Shown here piece by piece: positions 26,409 to 41,314 of a stretch of 64,000 nt of DNA. The DNA comes from an uncultured Planctomycetota bacterium (GTDB lineage: Bacteria; Planctomycetota; Planctomycetia; Isosphaerales; Isosphaeraceae). The notes beneath the pieces are model-generated. The model ran no database searches. It was not told the origin of the DNA and worked only from the letters and a program-made list of their open reading frames with translations. The DNA is taken from contig CAVTTN010000002.1 in NCBI GenBank assembly GCA_963737655.1, forward strand, positions 7,488,001 to 7,552,000, in the 5' to 3' direction. Numbering within the stretch: position 1 is the first letter of the stretch; the number at the start of each line of letters is the position of its first letter. The translations under genes were made by a program, and so were the position numbers.

Positions 26409-27682
26409 ATGCGTGTCTCCTCGACCACCCGCCGGACGTTCTTGATGCAGACCGGGGCCGCGGCGGCCGTCGCGACGGCCGCGGACCTCGCCTCCGTCGC
26501 CCATGCCGCCGGCAGCGACACCCTCCGCGTCGGCCTGGTCGGCTGCGGAGGGCGAGGCACCGGAGCCGCCGAGCAAGCCCTGACCGCCGACCGGGCCACC
26601 AAGCTCGTCGCCATGGGCGACGCCTTCCCCGATGCCATCGAGGGCAGCCTCTCCTCGCTGAAGTCCTCGGGCGTGGCCGATCGCGTGGAGATCCCGGCCG
26701 ACCGCAAGTTCGTCGGCTTCGACGCCTACAAGAACGTGATCGACAACGTCGATATCGTCCTGCTGACGACCCCGCCGCACTTCCGGCCCATCCACCTGGA
26801 CTACGCCGTGAAGAAGGGCGTCCACAGCTTCGTCGAGAAGCCCGTGGCCACCGACGCGCCGGGCGTCCGCAAGGTCCTGGCCCTGATCGAGGAGGCGAAG
26901 GGGAAGAACCTCGCGCTGGTCTCGGGCCTCTGCTGGCGATATCACCAGCCCCGCCGCGAGACGATGAAGCGCGTCCTGGACGGCTCGCTCGGGCCGGTCG
27001 TGGCGGTCGAGACGACGTACAACTCGCGAGGGGTCTGGGAGCCCAGGCGGACCCGCGAGCAGGTCGGCTCGGAGATGGAGTCTCCAGATGAGGAACTGGT
27101 ACTACCACTGCTGGCTCTCGGGCGACCACATCGTCGAGCAGGCCGTCCACGGGATCGACACGATGGCCTGGGCCCTGGGGACGAGCCCCGGTCCGCTGCA
27201 TCGCCTCGGGCGGGCGGACGGTCCGCACCGACGAGAAGTACGGCGACATCTGGGACAACTTCTCGGTCCTGTACGAGTACGCCAACGGCGCCCGGGGCTA
27301 TCACAACTGCCGACACTGGCGCGATTCCGACCCCCGGGTCGAGGACTTCGTGCTCTGCCCCAAGGGCCGGGTGGACGTCTTCGCCAACAAGGTCGACGGC
27401 GAGGCGAAGTGGCGCTATCGCGGGCCCAAGACCGACATGTACCAGGCCGAACATGACGAGATGTTCGCCTCGATCCGCGCCGGCAAGCCGATCAACAACG
27501 GCCTGTATGCCGCGAGGAGCACCCTCCTGGCGATCATGGGCCGGATGGCGGCGTACACCGGCTCCTACGTCACGTGGGAGATGGCCCTCAACTCGATCGA
27601 GAACCTCGGGCCGAGCGAATACGCCTGGGGCGACGTCCCGAAGCGGGCCGTCCCCAAGCCGGGGGTCACGAAGTTCGCCTGA
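26409..27682 (+). CDS. Tat-exported Gfo/Idh/MocA family oxidoreductase (frameshifts at ~27083 and ~27180-27190)
   Basis: TTRRTFL Tat motif, VGLVGCGGRGTGA, FVEKPVA, MRNWYY..WLSGDHIVEQAVH, AIMGRMAAYTG. Confidence 0.88.
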
Positions 27683-27901: not shown

Positions 27902-29611
27902 CTACGCCCGTCCCACCCGGCGGACGACGTCGCGGAGCCTTCGGGCGTCGATGGGCTTGGTCAGGTGGGCGGCGAACCCGGCGTCTCGACACGCGGAGAC
28001 GTCGGCCTCGGCGCCGTAGCCGGTCAGGGCGACGGCGGGGACTCCGTGACCGGCGGGGAGGCGGCTCAAGAGCTCGATTCCGGAGCCGTCGGGCAGCCCG
28101 AGGTCACTCAGGATCAGGTCGAATTCGGAGGGCCTGAAGGCGGAGAGGGCCGACGCCACCCCCTCGGCCGAGACGACGCGATGGCCGTCGGATTTCAGGA
28201 GCCGGCCGAGGACGGCGATCGTGGCCGGGTCGTCCTCGACCAGGAGGATGCGGAGGGGGCCGGAGGCGGACCCCTCGGCCTCGGGGGGCGGACCGGCTTC
28301 CGGGCTGATCCGGGCCGAGCGGACGGTGGGGATCTCGATGGCCAGGCGAGTGCCTTTGCCCGGTCCGTCGCTCTGGGCGGTGATCCGGCCGGCGTGGGCC
28401 TCGATCACCGATCGGCTGATCGCCAGGCCCAGGCCTAGGCCGCCCCCCCGTGGCCCTCGTTCGGGGCCGGGGACCTGGACGAACGCCTCGAAGATCCGGC
28501 TGAGGGCCTCGGGATCGATGCCGATCCCGGAGTCCTCCACCTCGACGACCAGCCTGGGGGCGTCGCGACCGTCGGGCCTCGCATTCCGGGAGCGGACCCG
28601 GATGAAGCCGCCCGCCGGGGTGAACTTCACGGCATTCTTCACCAGGTTCCAGACGACCTGCTGGAGCCGGGCCGGGTCGGCCTCGGCGTGGTGGTGTTCC
28701 GCCTGGAGCTCCACCAGGAGCCGCAGGCCGCCGGCATCCACGTCGGCCCGGCAGATGTCGATCGCACGATGGATCAGGGCGTGGACGTCCACGAACTCCG
28801 GGGCGAGCCGGAGCTTCCCCTGGCCGATCCGGGTGATGTCCAGGAGGTCGTCGATCAGGCGGGATTCCAGCTCGATGTTGCGGCGGACCATCTCCAGGAT
28901 CGGCAGGAGGGCCTCGGGGGTGGACGGATCGTCGATCAGGGTGGACGTGGCGAGCAAGACGGGGTTCAGCGGGGTCCGCAGTTCATGGCTGAGCATGGCG
29001 AGGAAATGGTCCTTGGCGCGATTGGCGGCCTCGGCCTCGGCCCGGGCGGCCCGCTCGCGTTCGAGGAGTCGGGAGCGGTCTTCCTCGGCCCGGCGGCGCT
29101 CGGCGATCTCGGCGCGAAGGAACTCGTTGGCGTGCGCGAGCTCGGCCGTCCGCTCTCGGACGCGGATTTCCAGCTCGTCGCGGACCCGTCGCAGCGCGTC
29201 CTCATGGCGGGCTCGTTCCAGGGCGAACCGGATCGAGCGTTCCAGGACCAGCGCGTCCAGCCGTTCCTTGGGCACGTAATCGGCGGCGCCGGCCTTCATG
29301 GCTTCCACGTCGGTCGAGCGGTTCCCCTGGCCGGTCAGGAGGATCAGGGGCTTGCGGCAGCCTCCGGCCCGGGCCTCGCGGATCAGGTCCAGGCCGCTGG
29401 TGGGCCCGAGGTGGTAATCGACGAGGTAGACGTCGTGCGACTCCGACCGGATCGCCACCAGGCCCCGGTCGTACGACGCGGCCCAGTCCAGGGCGAACCG
29501 GCCCCAGGGGATCTCCTCCAGGAGGTCCCGGGTCAGGACGAAGTCGTCCTCGTCGTCGTCCACGAGCAGGACGCGGAGAGGCTCCGCGGACGGGTCAGTC
29601 GCGGGGCGCAT
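27902..29611 (-). CDS. Hybrid sensor kinase / response regulator (REC-HisKA-HATPase-REC)
   Basis: VLLVDDDEDD, LSHELRTPL, NLVKNAVKFT, DSGIGI, GLGLGLAI, C-terminal ILLVEDD...SDLGLPDGSG. Confidence 0.93.
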   Translation of the reverse strand: MRPATDPSAEPLRVLLVDDDEDDFVLTRDLLEEIPWGRFALDWAASYDRGLVAIRSESHDVYLVDYHLGPTSGLDLIREARAGGCRKPLILLTGQGNRSTDVEAMKAGAADYVPKERLDALVLERSIRFALERARHEDALRRVRDELEIRVRERTAELAHANEFLRAEIAERRRAEEDRSRLLERERAARAEAEAANRAKDHFLAMLSHELRTPLNPVLLATSTLIDDPSTPEALLPILEMVRRNIELESRLIDDLLDITRIGQGKLRLAPEFVDVHALIHRAIDICRADVDAGGLRLLVELQAEHHHAEADPARLQQVVWNLVKNAVKFTPAGGFIRVRSRNARPDGRDAPRLVVEVEDSGIGIDPEALSRIFEAFVQVPGPERGPRGGGLGLGLAISRSVIEAHAGRITAQSDGPGKGTRLAIEIPTVRSARISPEAGPPPEAEGSASGPLRILLVEDDPATIAVLGRLLKSDGHRVVSAEGVASALSAFRPSEFDLILSDLGLPDGSGIELLSRLPAGHGVPAVALTGYGAEADVSACRDAGFAAHLTKPIDARRLRDVVRRVGRA

Positions 29612-30050
29612 CGGGCAACTCCACGATCTCCAGCCAGTATCGCCCCAGGTCTCGCATCACCTCCACCAGCCCGGCGAACGTGACCGGCTTGGTGATGAAG
29701 GAATTCGCCCCGAGCTCGTAGGACCGAAGGATTTCGGCTTCCCCCGCCGTCGTGGTCAGGACGACGATCGGGATGGATCGGAGCTCGGGATTGGTCTTGA
29801 TCTGGCCCAGGGCTTCGCGGCCCCCCATCCTCGGCATGTTCAGGTCCAGCAGGATCAGGCCGGGCCTCGGCGAGTCGGCCGGAGCGGAGAACGGCCCTCG
29901 GCGTTCGAGGTACTCCATGAGCTCCTCGCCATCGTGGACGAATCGCAGCTCATTGGCCACGCGGACCTCGCGAAGGGCCTCGCGAGTCAGGAGGCGGTCG
30001 TCCTCGTCGTCGTCGGCCATCAGGATCACGACGCGCTCGGTCCGGCTCAT
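29595..30050 (-). CDS. Single-domain response regulator (Rcp1-like)
   Basis: ILMADDDEDD, LILLDLNMPRMGG, IPIVVLTT, YELGANSFITKP, RYWLEIV. Confidence 0.92.
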   Translation of the reverse strand: MSRTERVVILMADDDEDDRLLTREALREVRVANELRFVHDGEELMEYLERRGPFSAPADSPRPGLILLDLNMPRMGGREALGQIKTNPELRSIPIVVLTTTAGEAEILRSYELGANSFITKPVTFAGLVEVMRDLGRYWLEIVELPDAPRD

Positions 30051-31254
30051 GGGCGCGATCCCCCGGTCGGGGGCTCCAGGGGGAGCCGGATCAGGAACGT
30101 CGAGCCGGAGCCCTGGACGCTCCGGGCCGAGAGCGACCCGTGGTGCCTCTCGACGATCTTCCGGCAGATGGCCAGGCCCATGCCCGAGCCTTCGAATTCC
30201 CCCCGGCCGTGGAGCCTCTGGAACATGGTGAAGATCCGCTCGGCGTACTTCTCGTCGAAGCCGATCCCGTTGTCTTCCACGACGATCTCGCAGAGGGGCT
30301 GGGCCGGAAGACCCCCGATTCGGTCAATGTCGCCTCGGCCGAGGCCGGCGGCGGCTCGATCACCCGGGCCGAGACCCGGATCACCGGGGGGACGCCCGGC
30401 CGGTGGAACTTCAGGCCGTTGCCGATCAGGTTCTGCAGCAACTGGCGGACCTGGAGCGGGTCGGCGCGGATCGTCGGCAGGGGGGCGAGCTCGACCCGCC
30501 CGCCGGTCTGCGCGATCCGCCCTTCCAGGTCCTCGACGACCCCGGCCGCCACCTCGTCCAGGCTCACCGAGGAGAACGGCTGGGCCTTGGTCGAGATCTG
30601 CGAATAGGCGAGCAGGTCCTCGATCAGGACCTTCATCCGGGCCGCCGCGTTGACCATCCGCGCGAGGTAGTCGCGCCCGTCATCCCCCAGGGCCGGGCCG
30701 CACCGGGACGTCAGCCGGTCGCCGAACGCCTGGATCTTCCTCAGGGGTTCCTGGAGGTCGTGCGAGGCGACCATGGCGAACTCCCGAAGCTCGCGGTTGC
30801 TCTGCTCCAGCTCTCGGGCGAACATCTGGAGCCGCTCCTCGGCCTTCAGCCGCTCGTCAATCTCTCGGCGAAGCTCCGCGGGGCCCCGGAGCGACAACGC
30901 CTTGGGGATCACCGGGACCAGCGCCACCACCGTCGCCACCGAGATCACGGCCGTGATCGCCTTGAGGAGACCGGCCAGCCGGTACAGCGGCGTGTAGAAG
31001 ACGACCACTTCCATGAAATGCGTGAATCCACACCCAATAATAAACGCACCGAAGAGGACGAACATCCAGGAAAACGGCAAGTCCTGCCTCTTTCTCGCGA
31101 ACGAGACGAGGAGGATCGGGATGGCGACGTAGGCCATCCAGATGGCGGCGTCGGAGGCGTTGTGGAGCTGGACCAGCTCGTCCGACCACCCGCCTCAGTG
31201 CCGTCGGGGCACGAAATCGGAATGATCGAACAGCTTCGCGAAGAATTCACCCAT
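30047..31254 (-). CDS. Sensor histidine kinase with an N-terminal ETR1-type ethylene-binding domain; in-frame TGA at codon 20 and one frameshift at ~30290-30350
   Basis: [45 protein letters not shown]...[37 protein letters not shown]...GSGMGLAIC. Confidence 0.85.
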
Positions 31255-31500: not shown

Positions 31501-32013
31501 TCAACCGTCGGTCGCGATCGTCGCCGAGAGCACTGGCGGCTGGCGGAGGGTCTGGAGGACCACGCAGTACCTCTCGGTGAGCTTCAGCAGCGTGGCGAGC
31601 TGGTCGGCGGTCGCCTCCGTCTTCAGGGAGAAGCGTAACCGGATGGACTGGAACCCGACCGGCGCGGTTTTCTCCACGCCCAGGGTGCCCCGGAAGTCCA
31701 GGTCGCCTTCGGCCCAGACGCTCCCGCCCTCCACGGCGATCCCCAGGGCGGTGGCCACGGCCCGGAGCGTCACGCCCGAGCAGGCGGCCAGGGCTTCCAG
31801 GAGCATCTCGCCGGAGCAGGCCCAGGAGCCGTCCCCGCCCGCCGCCGGATGCAGGCCGGCGTCGATCAGGGCCCGGCCGGTCTCGACCCGGCAGGAGATC
31901 CCCTCGGCCCCGAGCTCGCCTCGGGCCCTCATCGTGACCACGGCCGAGGCCGGGTCGTCGCGATACTTCGCCTTGATCGGGGCCTGCAAGGTCCGGATCG
32001 CCTCGGCGTCCAT
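31501..32013 (-). CDS. OsmC family protein
   Basis: [45 protein letters not shown]. Confidence 0.88.
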
Positions 32014-32146: not shown

Positions 32147-32848
32147 ATGGACGAATCGAAGAAGGCGGTGGTCTTGCTCAGCGGCGGCCTCGATTCCGCC
32201 ACCGCCCTGGCCGAGGCGATCGCCGAGGGATTCACACCGTTCGCCCTGACGATCCTGTACGGCCAGAGGCACGCCGTGGAGCGCGACGCCGCCCGACGGG
32301 TCGCCCGGTCGATGGGCGTGGCCCGCCACGTCGAGCAGACGATCGACCTCCGCGCCTTCGGCGGCAGCGCCCTGACCGCCGAGATCGACGTCCCGAAGGA
32401 CCGCGACGCCGGCGCCATGGCCTCGGGCATCCCGATCACGTATGTCCCGGCCCGCAACACGGTCTTCCTCGCCCTGGCCCTGGCCTGGGCCGAGTCCCTC
32501 GGCGCGTTCGACCTGTTCGTCGGCGTGAATTGCGTCGATTATTCCGGCTATCCGGACTGCCGGCCCGAGTACCTCGCCGCGTTCGAGACCATGGCGAACC
32601 TGGCCACGAAGGCCGGCGTCGAGGGCTCGGGCCGATTTCGCATCCACGCCCCGTTGATCCGCATGAGCAAGGTGGAGATCATCCGCAGGGGCCGCGAGCT
32701 CGGCGTCGATTACGGATCGACCCACAGTTGCTACGACCCCGACCCGCAAGGCCGGGCCTGCGGACGGTGCGACTCCTGCCGGCTGAGGCTCGACGCCTTC
32801 GCCGCCCTCGGACTCGACGACCCGGCCCCTTATGCCACGACCGCCTGA
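32147..32848 (+). CDS. queC: 7-cyano-7-deazaguanine synthase
   Basis: [32 protein letters not shown]...CGRCDSC. Confidence 0.96.
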
Positions 32849-32890: not shown

Positions 32891-33793
32891 ATGCGACTCT
32901 CCCATCGCCTCCGGGGCCTGTTCCCGCCTCTGCCCACGCCGTTCACCCGCGACGAATCGATCGACGTCCCGGCGCTCTCGCGGTTCGTGGATTTCCAGGT
33001 CGAGGCCGGGGTCCACGGCCTGTGGGTCCTCGGCACGACCGCGAGGTTCGACCAGGTCACCGAGGCCGACGCCCGCCTCGTCGCCGAGACGGTCCTGGAC
33101 GCGAATCGGTCGCGGCTCCCGACCGTCCTGAACGTCTCGGACCTCGGCACGAGGCGGACCCTCTTCCGCGCCCGATCGTTCGACGACCTCGCGTTCGACT
33201 ATTACGCCGCCCTCCCGCCCTGGTATCAGCCGATGAGCCCGGCCGAGGTCGGCGACTACTTCCGAAGCCTGGCCGACGGCCTGACTCGCCCGCTGGTCAT
33301 CTACAACGCCCCGTGGGTCTGCAATCAGCTCGCGTTCGACGACCTTCGCCGACTGGCCGAGCACCCGAGGATCGTCGGCGTGAAGGACGTCTCCCCGAGC
33401 CTCTTCCGCACCGTCGACTGGCCGAAGGAGGCCCGCGAGGCCCTGGATTTCCGCTACCTCCATGGCAACGATTTGCTCGCCACCTCGATCGACCTCGGCG
33501 CCGACGGCTTCGTCTCGGCCCTGGGCAACGTGTTTCCCGAAGTGGCCGTGGCGACCTGGGACGCGATGGAACGCAACGACCTGGCGGCGGCCTTCCGCCT
33601 GCAAAGCCAGTTCACCCGGCTCGGCCGGGCGATGAACCTCGGACCCACGCTCGCCTGCCTCGAAGCCGCCGGACGCCATCGCGGCCTCTTCGACCGGATG
33701 CTCCCGAGCCCGTATCGATCGCTCGACCCCGAAAAAGCCGGGAGGGTCATCGAGGCGATCGAATCCGTCGGGATCCTCCCCTCCGAGGCGTGA
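32891..33793 (+). CDS. Dihydrodipicolinate synthase / class I aldolase family protein
   Basis: LPTPFTRDESID, GLWVLGTT, IYNAP, IVGVKD (Schiff-base Lys), GADGFVS. Confidence 0.85.
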   Translation: MRLSHRLRGLFPPLPTPFTRDESIDVPALSRFVDFQVEAGVHGLWVLGTTARFDQVTEADARLVAETVLDANRSRLPTVLNVSDLGTRRTLFRARSFDDLAFDYYAALPPWYQPMSPAEVGDYFRSLADGLTRPLVIYNAPWVCNQLAFDDLRRLAEHPRIVGVKDVSPSLFRTVDWPKEAREALDFRYLHGNDLLATSIDLGADGFVSALGNVFPEVAVATWDAMERNDLAAAFRLQSQFTRLGRAMNLGPTLACLEAAGRHRGLFDRMLPSPYRSLDPEKAGRVIEAIESVGILPSEA

Positions 33794-36849: not shown

Positions 36850-38234
36850 TCAGGCCCGGGCGCCCTCCGCCAGCCCGGCCGCCGAGGGTTCGGCCAAGGC
36901 GGCCCTCGACCGAACGATCATCGGCAGGCCGAACTCGGGGCGGAGCGTCATCGTGGGGAGCGCCCTCACGTTCGCGTCCGGCGCGAGCTCCAGCCGGTAT
37001 TTCCTCGCGATGGTGGCCAGGACCAGGGCCATTTCCATCAACGCGAAGTCCTTGCCGATGCAGACCCTCGGGCCTCCGCCGAACGGGAAGTAGGCATATC
37101 TCGGGATTTTCCGGGCGAGGCCGCCCTCCCAGCGCTCGGGGCGGAACGTATCGGGGTCGTCGAACCATCGGGGGTCGCGGTGGACGAGCCATTGCGACAT
37201 GTAGACCGTCCAGCCCTTGGGCACGTTCACGCCCGCGACCGTCGTGGACACGATCGCCTCCCGGCCGATCAGCCAGACGGTCGAATCGACCCGCAGGGTC
37301 TCGGCGATCACGTTCTCGGTATAGGGCAATCTGGGGAGGTCGGCGATCGTCGGGGCCCGGCCTCCGAGGACCGAGTCGATCTCGGCGAGCATCTTCGCCT
37401 CGACCTCCGGGTGGCCGGCGAGCCGGTGGGCGACCCAGGCCAGGGTGTTGGCCGTCGTCTCGTGGCCGGCCATGAAGAGCGTCATGACCTCGTCGCGCAA
37501 TTGCCGGTCGGACATGCCGCCGTCTTCATCGGTGGCGTGGAGGAGCATCGACAGCAGGTCGCCCCGGCCCTCGCCGGACTTCCGCCTCTCGGCGATCATC
37601 CGGAAGACGATCGAGTCGAGCCGGCGGATGGCCTCTCGGAGGCGGCGGTTGGCCGGCGTGGGGAGCCATTCGGGGATCGGGACGATCCGGCCGATCTTGG
37701 CGGTGAAGGCGCGGAGGACGGTCTCCATCGCCTCGCTCGCCCCGGCGCTCTCGCCGCGGACCTCGGCGCCGAAGAGGGCCTTGGCGGCGATCCCCAGGGT
37801 CAGTTTCATGAACTCTTCCTGGGCGTCGATGCGCTGGTCGGGGCCCAGCCGTCGATCATGGCCTCGGCGAACTCGACCATCATCGCGGCCTGGGCGGCGA
37901 CCTTCTCGCGGGCGAACGCCGGCTGGGCGAGCTTCCTCTGCCGCCTCCAGAAGTCCCCTTCGCTGGTCAGGAGGCCCCGGCCGAGGGTCGATTTCGTCCT
38001 CTTCAATGCGAAATGCTTGATGAAATCCTTATTCTTGGTGACGAGCACCTCTTCGATCGCGTCGGGGTGGCTCACCACCAGGATTCGCCTCGGCCCCAGG
38101 CGGATCTGGAAGACGTCTCCATATTTGTGAAAGCATTCGGTGAGGAACGTGAGGCGGCCGGAGACGAACTGGCCGAGATTCCCCTTGAGCCAGTGGCCTC
38201 CCGGTCCGGGCGCGAGACGGGCATCGGTGATCAT
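36850..38234 (-). CDS. Cytochrome P450 (frameshift at ~37845)
   Basis: GLLTSEGDFWRRQRK, AGHETTA, ETLR, HRDPRWF, FRPERW, FPFGGGPRVCIG. Confidence 0.93.
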
Positions 38235-38282: not shown

Positions 38283-39500
38283 CTATCCGGGCGTCCCGTC
38301 CGAGGCGGTCGGCTCGGGGTCGAGCAGGACGACGTCCCGGCCGTCGAAGACGGCGTCGTCGGCGTCGGCGTCGATCGGGAGGCTGTGGATCCAGGAGTTC
38401 CAGCCGAGGATCGGCCCGGCCTCGCCCTCCTCGGGCAGGCGGCATTCGGGGACCTCGTCGGCCCGGAGGATCAGTTGGACCTCGAAATCCAGCTCGGGGC
38501 CGACGTAGAGCCTCGTCAGGTGGGAGAGCAGGAAGAACCCCTTGCGGTAGGGGACGGGGGTCGGATCGGGCAGCAGCCGGATGAACTGGCCGTAATTCAG
38601 GGGGCCGAGCCTCAGGCGGACCTTGCCCTGGACGTCCCACACGCGATCCCCGGCCACGGCCCCGACGCCCAGCTGGGCCGAGATCGTCGGCTCGCCGACC
38701 CGGGTGCGCACCTCGGGTTCGAGGGCCAGCCACTGGCCCTGGAACTGGTGGACCTCGACCGGGAGGCCGAAGAAGTCGTTGAGGATGGCTTCCAGCCCGG
38801 CGGCCGACCGCGGCCGGTGGGACAGGAGGCCCGAGTAATAGACCAGCGCGAGGTCATCCACCCGGGCGAGGGTCTCGAAGGAGAGCCGACCGGCATCGTC
38901 CCTCGGCGCGAGGACCTTGAGGCGGTTCCTCAGCGAGGGCATCCCCACGCCGACGAGGCTGAGGACCGCCTTGACGATGTCGTCGGGCTCGGAGCGGCCG
39001 GCGGTCCTCTTCTCGAACTGGATCGCCGGCCGGTACTTGGCGAAGGCGCGATAGAACAGCGAGGTCAGCCGGTGGTTGAACAGGTCGAGCCATTCGCGCA
39101 AGGCCCGGCGCTCGGCCGACTTGCTCTCGCGCTCCAGGCGGATCACGAGCTCGGTGAAGTGCCGGGGGAGGACGCCCGACGGCCCGATCAGCCCGAGGAA
39201 CGCCTGGGTGACGATCGGCGACGGCTTCTCGCTGGTGGGCCGTTCGATCGTATAGATCGAGCTGGGCGGGAACGTCAGCGAGGGGATCGAGCGAAACCGA
39301 GCGGCCTCCGATTTGGGAGGCCCCGCGTGGCCGACCGGGGCCTTCATCGGGTCCAGCAACTGGAGGAGCCGGACGGCCTGGAAGAAGTCGAAATGCGAGC
39401 CGGAGTCGAACAGCCGTTGCTCGACGGTGGGCTTCTTCCGCCTCGATGCCGAGGAGGAGGCGGTCAGATCAGGGGCTGTTCGCCCGCCCGAGGCGCCCAT
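38283..39500 (-). CDS. tssG: Type VI secretion baseplate subunit TssG
   Basis: FDFFQAVRLL, FLGLIGPSGVLP, LDLFNHRL..LFYRA, PRSAAGLEAIL, LGWNSW. Confidence 0.92.
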   Translation of the reverse strand: MGASGGRTAPDLTASSSASRRKKPTVEQRLFDSGSHFDFFQAVRLLQLLDPMKAPVGHAGPPKSEAARFRSIPSLTFPPSSIYTIERPTSEKPSPIVTQAFLGLIGPSGVLPRHFTELVIRLERESKSAERRALREWLDLFNHRLTSLFYRAFAKYRPAIQFEKRTAGRSEPDDIVKAVLSLVGVGMPSLRNRLKVLAPRDDAGRLSFETLARVDDLALVYYSGLLSHRPRSAAGLEAILNDFFGLPVEVHQFQGQWLALEPEVRTRVGEPTISAQLGVGAVAGDRVWDVQGKVRLRLGPLNYGQFIRLLPDPTPVPYRKGFFLLSHLTRLYVGPELDFEVQLILRADEVPECRLPEEGEAGPILGWNSWIHSLPIDADADDAVFDGRDVVLLDPEPTASDGTPG

Positions 39501-41314
39501 GTCTTGAATGGCCTCTCTCCCTGCCTCGTCCGGGCGACGAGCTGGGTGAAGGAGTTGATCGTCGTGTACAGCCCGAGGAAGCGTTCCAGGAGGCTGGCGA
39601 ACAGGTAGGTCCCGGAGCCGAGGTATTTCTGCTCGTCGAGCTCGACGGAGACCTCCACCCCCCGGCAAAATCCGCTGGCGGCGCCGGAGCCGGTCCAGCC
39701 GACGACCGGGCGGGTCGAGAGGCCGACGATCCCGTCGATCAACTGCCGGCTGACCGCCGCGCCCTGTTCGCCCTGCTCGGGGTCGGAGAAGTCGTAGAGC
39801 CGGAGGATCTCCTGGAAGGCCTGGCGGCCGGCCTCGGGGTCGGACAGGCTCAGGTGGTTGAGGCTCAGGTGCGAGATCAGCCGCCAGTACGCCCCTCGCC
39901 GCGCCGGCGGCCGTTGCGTGATCGTGGGCATCCTCAGGCAGCGGATGCGGGACAGCGGGGCCGATTCCTCCAGGGAGAACGACAGCCGATCGCCGGCCGA
40001 TTGCAGCCTCGCCGGCAGGTCGCGGTTGGTGCAGGTCGTCCGGACCACCAGAGTGGACTCGGCGGGGAGCCTGGGATTGAACCCCAGGTCCACCAGGGTC
40101 AGATACACCTCGGTCCCCCGGTCGGACTCGTCGAACGACGGCCGCCTCGAGGCGATCCAGTAGGCCCGTCGGCCCGAGTCGGCCGAGCCGTGGCGGAACG
40201 AGTAGAACGGCTGGTACTCGGTCTGGGACCGCGACGCCGGATCGATCCCGATGACCTGATCGATCGAGTAGACCTCGTGCCCCGCCTGCGCGGTGACCTC
40301 CGGCAAAACGCGGTATTCCAGCTTCGCGTGGGTCAACGGGATCGGCTCGGCCGTCTTCTCGAACAGGTTCACCACCGGCGCGCAGCCGAGCCGGAACGTC
40401 TCGGCCGAGACCGATTGCTCCAGGTTCGAGGCGGCTCGGTTCAGATAGATGATCACGTCCATCGTCTTGCCGGGGCCCGACCGGCACGCCGGTCCCAGGC
40501 CCTTCAGGTCGGCGAACTGGAACTTGGACGGGAAGGCGAAGAACTCGGTCAGCAGGCGGTAGCCGAGGAACGAGTGGGACGGGTAGGGGAGCAGGCCCTC
40601 GTCCCGCTCGAACCCCACCTGGCCAAATGCCTCGTCGCCATCCAGGATGATCGGGGGCGCATCGACGCCCCGGACCTTCAGGGTCACGCACATCACCGAA
40701 TTGAACAGGGATTCATACAGGGAGGCGGCCATCGCCCCTTCGCCCAGGAGGAAGAAGCGGAGGGTCTCCAGGCTGAGTTCGTGGAAGCCCATCCCGGCCT
40801 TGCAGTCGAGCTGGAGCCGGATCGCGGCGGCGGCCCGGGGCGGGGGGTCCAGGCCCGGCGGGAAGGGCGGGGTCAGGTAGCGGGCCGACGCCACCTGGAT
40901 CGGCCACAGTATCACGTCATGACCCGTCCGGAACTTGCACGGCACGTCCTGGACCGGAGGGCTGGCGATCCGGCTCCCCCGGGGGATCTTGAAGCCGTCG
41001 GGGAGTTGGCCCCGGTCGAAGTCCAGGTCGAACTGGACGATCGCCATCGAGGGGATCGGCGCGAGGTAGTGCGGATAGAGGACGCCGAGGAGGGCGTCGG
41101 TCAGCTCGGGGAACTCGTCGTCGAGCTTCTTGTGGATCCGCCCGGCGAGCAGGGCGAATGACTCGATCAGGCGCTCGACGTGGGGGTCGATGCTCCGGTT
41201 CGGCTCCAGGAGCAGCCGCCCGGCCGCGGCCGGGTATTGCCGGGCAAACTCCTGGGAGAGCTGTCGGATGAAGATCAGCTCGCGCTCGTAATATCCGTAC
41301 AGTGCTTCGCTCAT
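39464..41314 (-). CDS. tssF: Type VI secretion baseplate subunit TssF
   Basis: YYEREL, DPHVERLIESFA, YPHYLAPIPS, GYRLLTEFFAFP, WRLISHLSLNHLSL, INSFTQL. Confidence 0.95.
   Translation of the reverse strand: MSEALYGYYERELIFIRQLSQEFARQYPAAAGRLLLEPNRSIDPHVERLIESFALLAGRIHKKLDDEFPELTDALLGVLYPHYLAPIPSMAIVQFDLDFDRGQLPDGFKIPRGSRIASPPVQDVPCKFRTGHDVILWPIQVASARYLTPPFPPGLDPPPRAAAAIRLQLDCKAGMGFHELSLETLRFFLLGEGAMAASLYESLFNSVMCVTLKVRGVDAPPIILDGDEAFGQVGFERDEGLLPYPSHSFLGYRLLTEFFAFPSKFQFADLKGLGPACRSGPGKTMDVIIYLNRAASNLEQSVSAETFRLGCAPVVNLFEKTAEPIPLTHAKLEYRVLPEVTAQAGHEVYSIDQVIGIDPASRSQTEYQPFYSFRHGSADSGRRAYWIASRRPSFDESDRGTEVYLTLVDLGFNPRLPAESTLVVRTTCTNRDLPARLQSAGDRLSFSLEESAPLSRIRCLRMPTITQRPPARRGAYWRLISHLSLNHLSLSDPEAGRQAFQEILRLYDFSDPEQGEQGAAVSRQLIDGIVGLSTRPVVGWTGSGAASGFCRGVEVSVELDEQKYLGSGTYLFASLLERFLGLYTTINSFTQLVARTRQGERPFKTWAPRAGEQPLI

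Follow-up and report, generated by a model that had tools for sequence, protein, structure and literature searches.

The closest described systems are the ethylene receptors of plants and bacteria and the bacterial selenoproteins with in-frame SECIS elements. In Arabidopsis ETR1, as far as the consulted excerpts of two papers go, the Cu(I) site is formed by D25, C65 and H69 together with K91 (PMC2799528, PMC10266040), and both the dimer and ethylene binding by it are stabilised by disulfides at N-terminal Cys4/Cys6 (PMC2799528). The tested bacterial receptor AzoEtr1 has the residues corresponding to the ETR1 copper and relay positions at D35, C75, H79 and K98 of an ETR1_N three-helix domain (PMC11819568, PMC10266040, both in part), and AzoEtr1 and SynEtr1/GeiEtr share a kinase output, a neighbouring response regulator and one N-terminal Cys-type residue (PMC11819568, PMC6682694, in part), the single N-terminal Cys of the cyanobacterial receptors being a possible counterpart of the disulfides in plant dimers (excerpted from PMC6682694). 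For bacterial selenoproteins, the bSECIS model given in the consulted part of a 2026 review (PMC13188914) describes a hairpin with a 3–9 nt loop, a 4–16 bp stem, a G in loop position 1 or 2, a spacing of 16–37 nt and an MFE of at most -7.5. Most of the 119 prokaryotic selenoprotein families listed in that part of the review are oxidoreductases; among the others are some transporters, one TonB receptor and one putative regulator of the FmdB family, and no listed family is a sensor kinase or a PF25487 protein.

The window analysed here, a stretch of 64,000 nucleotides from the genome of an uncultured planctomycete, differs from those families in that it encodes an ethylene-receptor-type sensor kinase in which, we posit, a UGA at residue 20 is recoded as selenocysteine (Sec), a reading to which we give a probability of roughly 0.85. 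The parts of this gene and of the genes that follow it are:

31198..31254, minus strand: N-terminal extension, residues 1–19, ending F14-V-P16-R17-R-H; ahead of the TGA the frame is open, and the sequence alike, in 13 of 13 TGA loci
31195..31197, minus strand: in-frame TGA, residue 20, predicted selenocysteine; a Cys column, in which 12 further distinct loci also have TGA
31165..31179, minus strand: putative bacterial SECIS apical hairpin, +16 to +30, with a 6-bp stem and the loop GUC at 31173-31171; conserved, its 13-nt core shared with the SECIS of a peroxiredoxin-like gene of the host
30889..31179, minus strand: ETR1_N ethylene-receptor-like three-helix membrane domain, residues 26–122 (PF25487, E=1.5e-36, 124.9 bits, cut-off 27)
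30592..30789, minus strand: HisKA phospho-acceptor domain, residues 156–221 (PF00512, E=2.2e-9)
30293..30420, minus strand: first part of the HATPase with a linker, the frame shifting somewhere in the linker (frame comparison)
30047..30292, minus strand: C-terminal part of the HATPase in the shifted frame (PF02518, E=3.8e-19, at 30292-30050), whose stop, 30049-30047, overlaps with the following gene's ATG
29595..30050, minus strand: single-domain response regulator (PF00072, E=2.6e-18)
27902..29611, minus strand: REC-HisKA-HATPase-REC hybrid kinase, third gene of a probable operon (domain search)

A frame check bore out the reading frame proposed in the earlier note, with the minus-strand ATG at 31254 sharing the frame of the ORF-track start (31137) and the TGA at 31197-31195, in the context FVPRRH-stop-GGWSDEL, as the only stop between them. 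The note needs correction in that the kinase gene is itself frameshifted: HisKA is in frame with ETR1_N, and the HATPase is split in this assembly, a C-run near 30295 being one candidate place for a shift whose exact position is not pinned down. The HATPase is complete in one frame with HisKA in relatives L213, L092, L098, L114 and L134. As a cytochrome P450 gene (window 36850-38234) and a Gfo/Idh/MocA oxidoreductase gene (26409-27456) nearby are each split across frames in the same way, the kinase frameshift is likely, though unproven, to be an assembly indel. Gene overlap indicates that the adjacent response regulator is the probable phospho-partner of the kinase. A promoter search found no sigma-70-like promoter.

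The database protein of this genome (P0005) starts at M40 and therefore drops the copper-site Asp (D35), which illustrates how easily such genes are mis-annotated. The called N-termini of eight homologous proteins (P0012, P0015, P0039, P0053, P0056, P0057, P0062 and P0098) are truncated just past the Sec column; these could be UGA forms that were called wrongly, or could lie at contig ends.

In the window protein the AlphaFold model places helices at residues 25–55, 62–87 and 91–120 after a 24-residue extension (pLDDT 94), and the ETR1_N residues D35, Y42, I45, P46, I72, C75, H79 and K98 are all present. Y42, I45, P46 and I72 are what we take to be the rest of the seven residues required for ethylene binding. 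The copper-site numbering is the same as that of AzoEtr1, and D35/C75/H79 and K98 correspond to D25/C65/H69 and K91 of ETR1. Judged by its sequence, the window kinase belongs to the bacterial ethylene receptor family and would work as a receptor of that kind; unlike AzoEtr1 and SynEtr1/GeiEtr, it has as its N-terminal residue a UGA, predicted to be Sec, with a SECIS. It differs from ETR1 in having a bacterial two-component output and no GAF domain, and in having one chalcogen residue, predicted to be Sec instead of Cys, in place of Cys4 and Cys6. Since the Cys of the copper/ethylene site is C75, which is still Cys, Sec20 would replace a different, N-terminal Cys before helix 1. The earlier proposal of a Sec-containing metal, redox or gas sensor kinase thus survives as to Sec, while the gas-binding core (D35/C75/H79/K98, all kept) and the role of Sec, which lies outside it, have to be considered separately. 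PDB sequence and Foldseek searches returned no solved relative.

Conservation of the TGA column was assessed across homologous proteins and DNA loci. Cys occupies this column in 94 of 106 homologous proteins, the remaining 12 alignments stopping short of it, so that the Cys in the proposed motif P-x-x-H-C-x-x-W holds; the His does not, as it directly precedes Cys in only 12 of 73 aligned homologues, whose motif is F-x-P-[RH]-x-x-C-[GY]-x-W. At the DNA level 66 of 68 loci reach the column, with 59 Cys codons, two TGA codons (the window gene and L023) and five others, two duplicate pairs being counted. One locus in a selA-positive genome, L075 (G028:C14:60731-61090), has Ala where Cys or Sec is otherwise found.

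Relatives with TGA at this column, which had been suggested as a check, do exist. A pattern scan of metagenome contigs, in which TGA-GG and two bases of the hairpin 3' arm were fixed, gave 47 matches, of which 36 were unrelated and 11 were true homologues with TGA at the column, nine of them distinct. A loose pattern run over 401 genomes of the phylum matched 24, among which only the window genome and G048 were homologue-like (the others being judged by eye from 60 bases), and added locus L166. A hairpin-consensus pattern run over 401 genomes of the class matched two, the window genome and G634 (L213), against none for the reversed pattern. The total is 13 distinct TGA loci, the window gene and 12 others, with pairwise identities of 42–77% and a locus GC of 33–69%. 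In all 13 the N-terminus upstream of the TGA is open and in frame, and D35, Y42, C75 and H79 are kept, as is K98 in 12 of the 12 that cover it. L023 and L213 are intact full kinases, and outputs vary among the TGA loci between plain, hybrid and PAS kinases. The subfamily, with the motif F-x-P-R-x-x-U-G-G-W, is small, scattered and mostly found in Planctomycetota where the host is known; within the host family the form is rare, with a stop only in the window copy among 73 matches in 121 genomes. From this conservation we infer recoding, and a Sec subfamily of ethylene-receptor-type kinases is very probably real.

The proposed apical hairpin, GAGCUG-GUC-CAGCUC at +16 to +30 (31179-31165), is present as described, with the loop G at +22 and hence a 21-nt spacing from the UGA, and its 3-nt loop starting GU, 6-bp stem and 21-nt spacing all lie within the limits of the bSECIS model (PMC13188914, in part). 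The lower GUGG/CCAC and GGCG/CGCC pairing that had also been proposed is not conserved in relatives. Folding of the single sequence gave weak results (z of -1.35 to -2.23, not significant alone): two of four folded windows favoured another apical stem, GGAC/GUCC, and the 48-nt region folds at -23 kcal/mol with an MFE structure that holds the alternative apical stem. Support came instead from comparison. In the 12 TGA loci scored, +15 to +21 pairs with +25 to +31, the first two loop bases are invariably G and U, and five core pairs with the GU loop stand 21 nt after the UGA in 12 of 12, whereas among 54 Cys loci in register the core pairs are kept in two and at least six of seven pairs with a GU loop in three. 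Paired cells make up 95% in the TGA loci, compared with 31–61% when the partners are slid. Covariation is modest, with one pair changed on both sides and a closing pair that varies between A-U, C-G and G-C.

Codon usage across the hairpin also distinguishes the two groups. The stem end and loop are filled by rare codons, CTA in seven of 12 TGA loci and GTT in nine of 12, each compared with none of 54 Cys loci, against a background in the same TGA genes of 32 CTA among 579 Leu codons and 50 GTT among 357 Val codons. Two caveats apply to the contrast between TGA and Cys loci: two bases of the 3' arm were already set by the metagenome pattern, and the same peptide spans the hairpin in only three Cys loci (4, 4 and 6 of 7 pairs kept), so that the contrast is partly an amino-acid difference. 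In the window copy and L213 a G-C pair takes the place of the closing A-U, at the price of replacing Trp by Gln. Within the genome, the hairpin geometry follows 11 of 149,708 TGA triplets, 7 of 34,725 TAG and none of 14,753 TAA, and only two of the 11 TGA matches lie in coding-like frames, namely the window kinase and a UxxC AhpC/TSA gene whose hairpin has an identical 13-nt core at the same distance (+22). The hairpin exceeds chance only through comparison, by way of the TGA relatives and the genome-wide geometry count.

These comparisons bear on the simplest alternative, that the TGA arose by nonsense mutation or reflects a sequencing error at a Cys codon, or else is read as Cys or Trp by leaky suppression or an alternative code. 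A single substitution turns TGC or TGT into TGA, the assembly is error-prone, and 72 of the 73 family matches have no stop; nevertheless, the TGA is common to 13 distinct long-branch loci, accompanied by a conserved hairpin of rare codons, and this reading is very improbable, at the family level being, on these comparisons, already largely refuted. A TGA-reassigned genetic code was considered and rejected, TGA being an ordinary stop that terminates normal genes in these genomes. Restart of translation at M40 was likewise rejected, as it would lose D35 and M40 is not conserved among homologues.

In column-masked trees the TGA forms sit on long branches mixed with Cys forms, with at least five changes, mostly at open forks, and these trees do not separate one TGA origin from several; the first of them left out L108, L080 and L085, which are too short, and four duplicates. 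End branches of the TGA loci measure 0.07–0.83, and the nearest relatives of the window copy in the tree are Cys forms. A quick rooted tree of a chosen 38-row subset places TGA forms among the deepest branches of the subfamily, with weak support, and so allows a weakly supported scenario in which the P-R-x-x-[CU]-G subfamily would have started out with Sec and repeatedly returned to Cys.

The genome (7.63 Mb, 68.7% GC, 87.7% complete, main contig not closed) encodes most of the selenium machinery. Of the selABCD set whose presence had been proposed as a check, selA, selB and selD are all over cut-off, selA and selB adjacent and intact and selD with its own in-frame TGA, while tRNA-Sec (selC) was not found in the assembly by ARAGORN, Rfam (150 of 1752 candidates scored), blastn with the tRNA-Sec of four relatives, or nhmmer. 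ARAGORN at low threshold gave noise only, and neither an anticodon-arm scan nor Rfam on the sel loci found a tRNA-Sec; an anticodon regex missed known tRNAs (CAT, CTT) and was dropped as a control. The site syntenic to selC of congener G002 (G000:C2 about 101190-101320) holds a long palindromic repeat instead. The tRNAs Lys(UUU), Ser(CGA) and Val(GAC) were likewise not found in the whole assembly, and in relatives Lys(UUU) and Ser(CGA) lie within tRNA arrays of 11–16 genes (L220, L223, L224) that are absent from it. Because the contig is open and a tRNA-Lys(UUU) that is array-borne in relatives is also absent, an assembly gap is a plausible source of the missing selC, one that is suggested, not shown. 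tRNA-Sec is present in two congeners and, along with selA and selB, in the TGA carriers G048 and G634; G041 has selA and selB with no tRNA-Sec match over cut-off. The tRNA-Sec of G048 (L176, G048:C1:239067-239158) has an unusual 3' side of the anticodon loop (a C in the second position past the anticodon) relative to the three others in the alignment. Across the phylum selA is over cut-off in 84 of 121 genomes, and its co-occurrence with Sec genes is therefore weak evidence.

Three other UGA genes were recovered in the host. An AhpC/TSA gene with a UxxC motif (G000:C2:3455494, plus strand; L225:346-939) has a signal-peptide-like N-terminus and a SECIS core that matches the kinase's exactly; its product is a probable exported selenoprotein. 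An Rdx/SelW-like CxxU gene lies directly upstream of selD (G000:C2:3221679 and 3221374, minus strand; L019), both with an in-frame TGA, and GU-loop hairpins occur at +34 in selD, behind an extra small hairpin, and at +23 in the CxxU gene. A codon-score scan for the selenoproteome found the peroxiredoxin and SelD and missed the kinase and Rdx, and is therefore insensitive.

These data also bear on whether the window copy is alive. The Sec family could be real and this copy dead or dying, the host having lost its tRNA-Sec and the frameshift in the kinase being true, as the undetected selC and the frameshifted HATPase would have it. We regard this as quite improbable: selA, selB and selD are intact and the three other UGA genes kept, the P450 and Gfo/Idh/MocA genes of the window are split in the same manner, the shifted frame runs out precisely at the ATG of the following gene, and the open assembly also lacks tRNA-Lys(UUU) despite the 2,784 AAA codons in its long ORFs. 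A live, functional window copy is the likely case on present evidence. By the Cys column, the recurrence of TGA, the bSECIS hairpin and the presence of selA, selB and selD in the host, the kinase is predicted to be a bacterial selenoprotein, selC being the one component not found in this assembly, and resembles known in-frame-SECIS selenoproteins in its Cys/Sec homologue pair and its small G-first loop 21 nt past the UGA (PMC13188914, in part).

The position of residue 20 suggests possible functions. Given three helices and a cytoplasmic kinase, one would expect the N-terminal extension on the periplasmic side. When a homodimer was modelled with a Cys stand-in (P0003, residues 1–135), it scored 0.63, whereas the best of three controls scored 0.00; of 30 solved pairs 20 attain the mark, as does 1 of 23 single chains. 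At least 89% of contacts were common to the runs, with a pLDDT of at least 79. The modelled interface comprises residues 12–15, 20–23, 27 and 30–31, with 20–23 in both copies, and a Cys20-Cys20' pair is absent from the 25 best-resolved modelled contacts. We consider the most likely role, at about an even chance, to be that Sec20 replaces a Cys presumed to cross-link receptor dimers, so that a diselenide would join the two subunits at the periplasmic face.

Sec20 could instead be a metal ligand or loading site, selenolate being the stronger ligand of soft metals. Together with H31, and twice per dimer, it would bind or pass on Cu(I) or some other soft metal at the periplasmic face, and the receptor would sense the metal or be armed by it. 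C20 and H31 are conserved in 73 of 73 and 69 of 73 homologues, and residues 20–23, 27 and 30–31 are all in the predicted interface; on the other hand, modelled H31 packs on G95/K98 of the partner and the known copper site D35/C75/H79 is intact and has no need of Sec20, and we judge a metal site to be rather unlikely. Alternatively, Sec20 could act as a catalytic redox switch, cycled by peroxide or periplasmic oxidoreductases between selenol and oxidised forms so as to toggle the kinase, whether or not it binds ethylene. Redox proteins make up the majority of known bacterial selenoproteins (PMC13188914, in part), and the host UxxC protein with its signal-peptide-like start has the same SECIS core; however, the two genes are linked by the SECIS alone, all ethylene-site residues are kept, and the extension has no resolving Cys, so any cycle must run between subunits, all of which leaves such a switch unlikely.

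For the diselenide reading the following mechanism is proposed. SelB binds the GU-loop SECIS hairpin and delivers Sec-tRNA to the UGA in the established pathway. Acting on the hairpin 21 nt downstream, it would insert Sec at residue 20, in an N-terminal segment that is probably periplasmic and at the dimer interface, and the three-helix domain would keep its predicted Cu(I)/ethylene site (D35, C75, H79, K98), as homology suggests. A diselenide, resisting reduction better than a disulfide, might keep the dimer locked or tuned to the redox state, and a signal would pass from the membrane domain through HisKA-HATPase to the adjacent response regulator, as homology and gene overlap suggest. If selenium is lacking, the ribosome would stop after 19 codons, and receptor synthesis would therefore depend on selenium. 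More tentatively, and with something short of even odds, a switch of the Se-Se or Se-Cu type, spanning the dimer in the periplasm, may gate ethylene/copper signalling by redox state, in a receptor made only when selenium is available.

Neither a Sec sensor kinase nor an ETR1-like protein appears in the consulted parts of deep-Sep (PMC12013277) or of the planctomycete genome paper (PMC4807772), and a full-text literature search returned no report of a Sec ethylene-receptor-type kinase, although subscription journals or supplements could hold a mention. Among the NCBIfam matches listed there was no selenoprotein model and nothing over cut-off. Sec ethylene-receptor-type kinases are probably an undescribed selenoprotein subfamily. 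If true, a receptor containing Sec would bring two-component signalling within the reach of selenium biology. The N-terminal Cys of bacterial ethylene receptors is a candidate for a cross-link, a copper relay or a redox switch, and since selenium is a unique spectroscopic handle (77Se NMR, Se EXAFS, 75Se label), the Sec forms would offer a natural probe of its role.

The surroundings of the kinase gene contain a number of other recognisable genes. An OsmC-like gene (window 31501-32013, minus strand) lies just upstream on the same strand, and queC and a DHDPS-family gene (32147-32848 and 32891-33793, both plus strand) are divergent from the strand of the kinase and OsmC-like genes. Further along, at 38283-41314 (minus strand), are genes resembling TssF/TssG, presumably of a type VI secretion baseplate.
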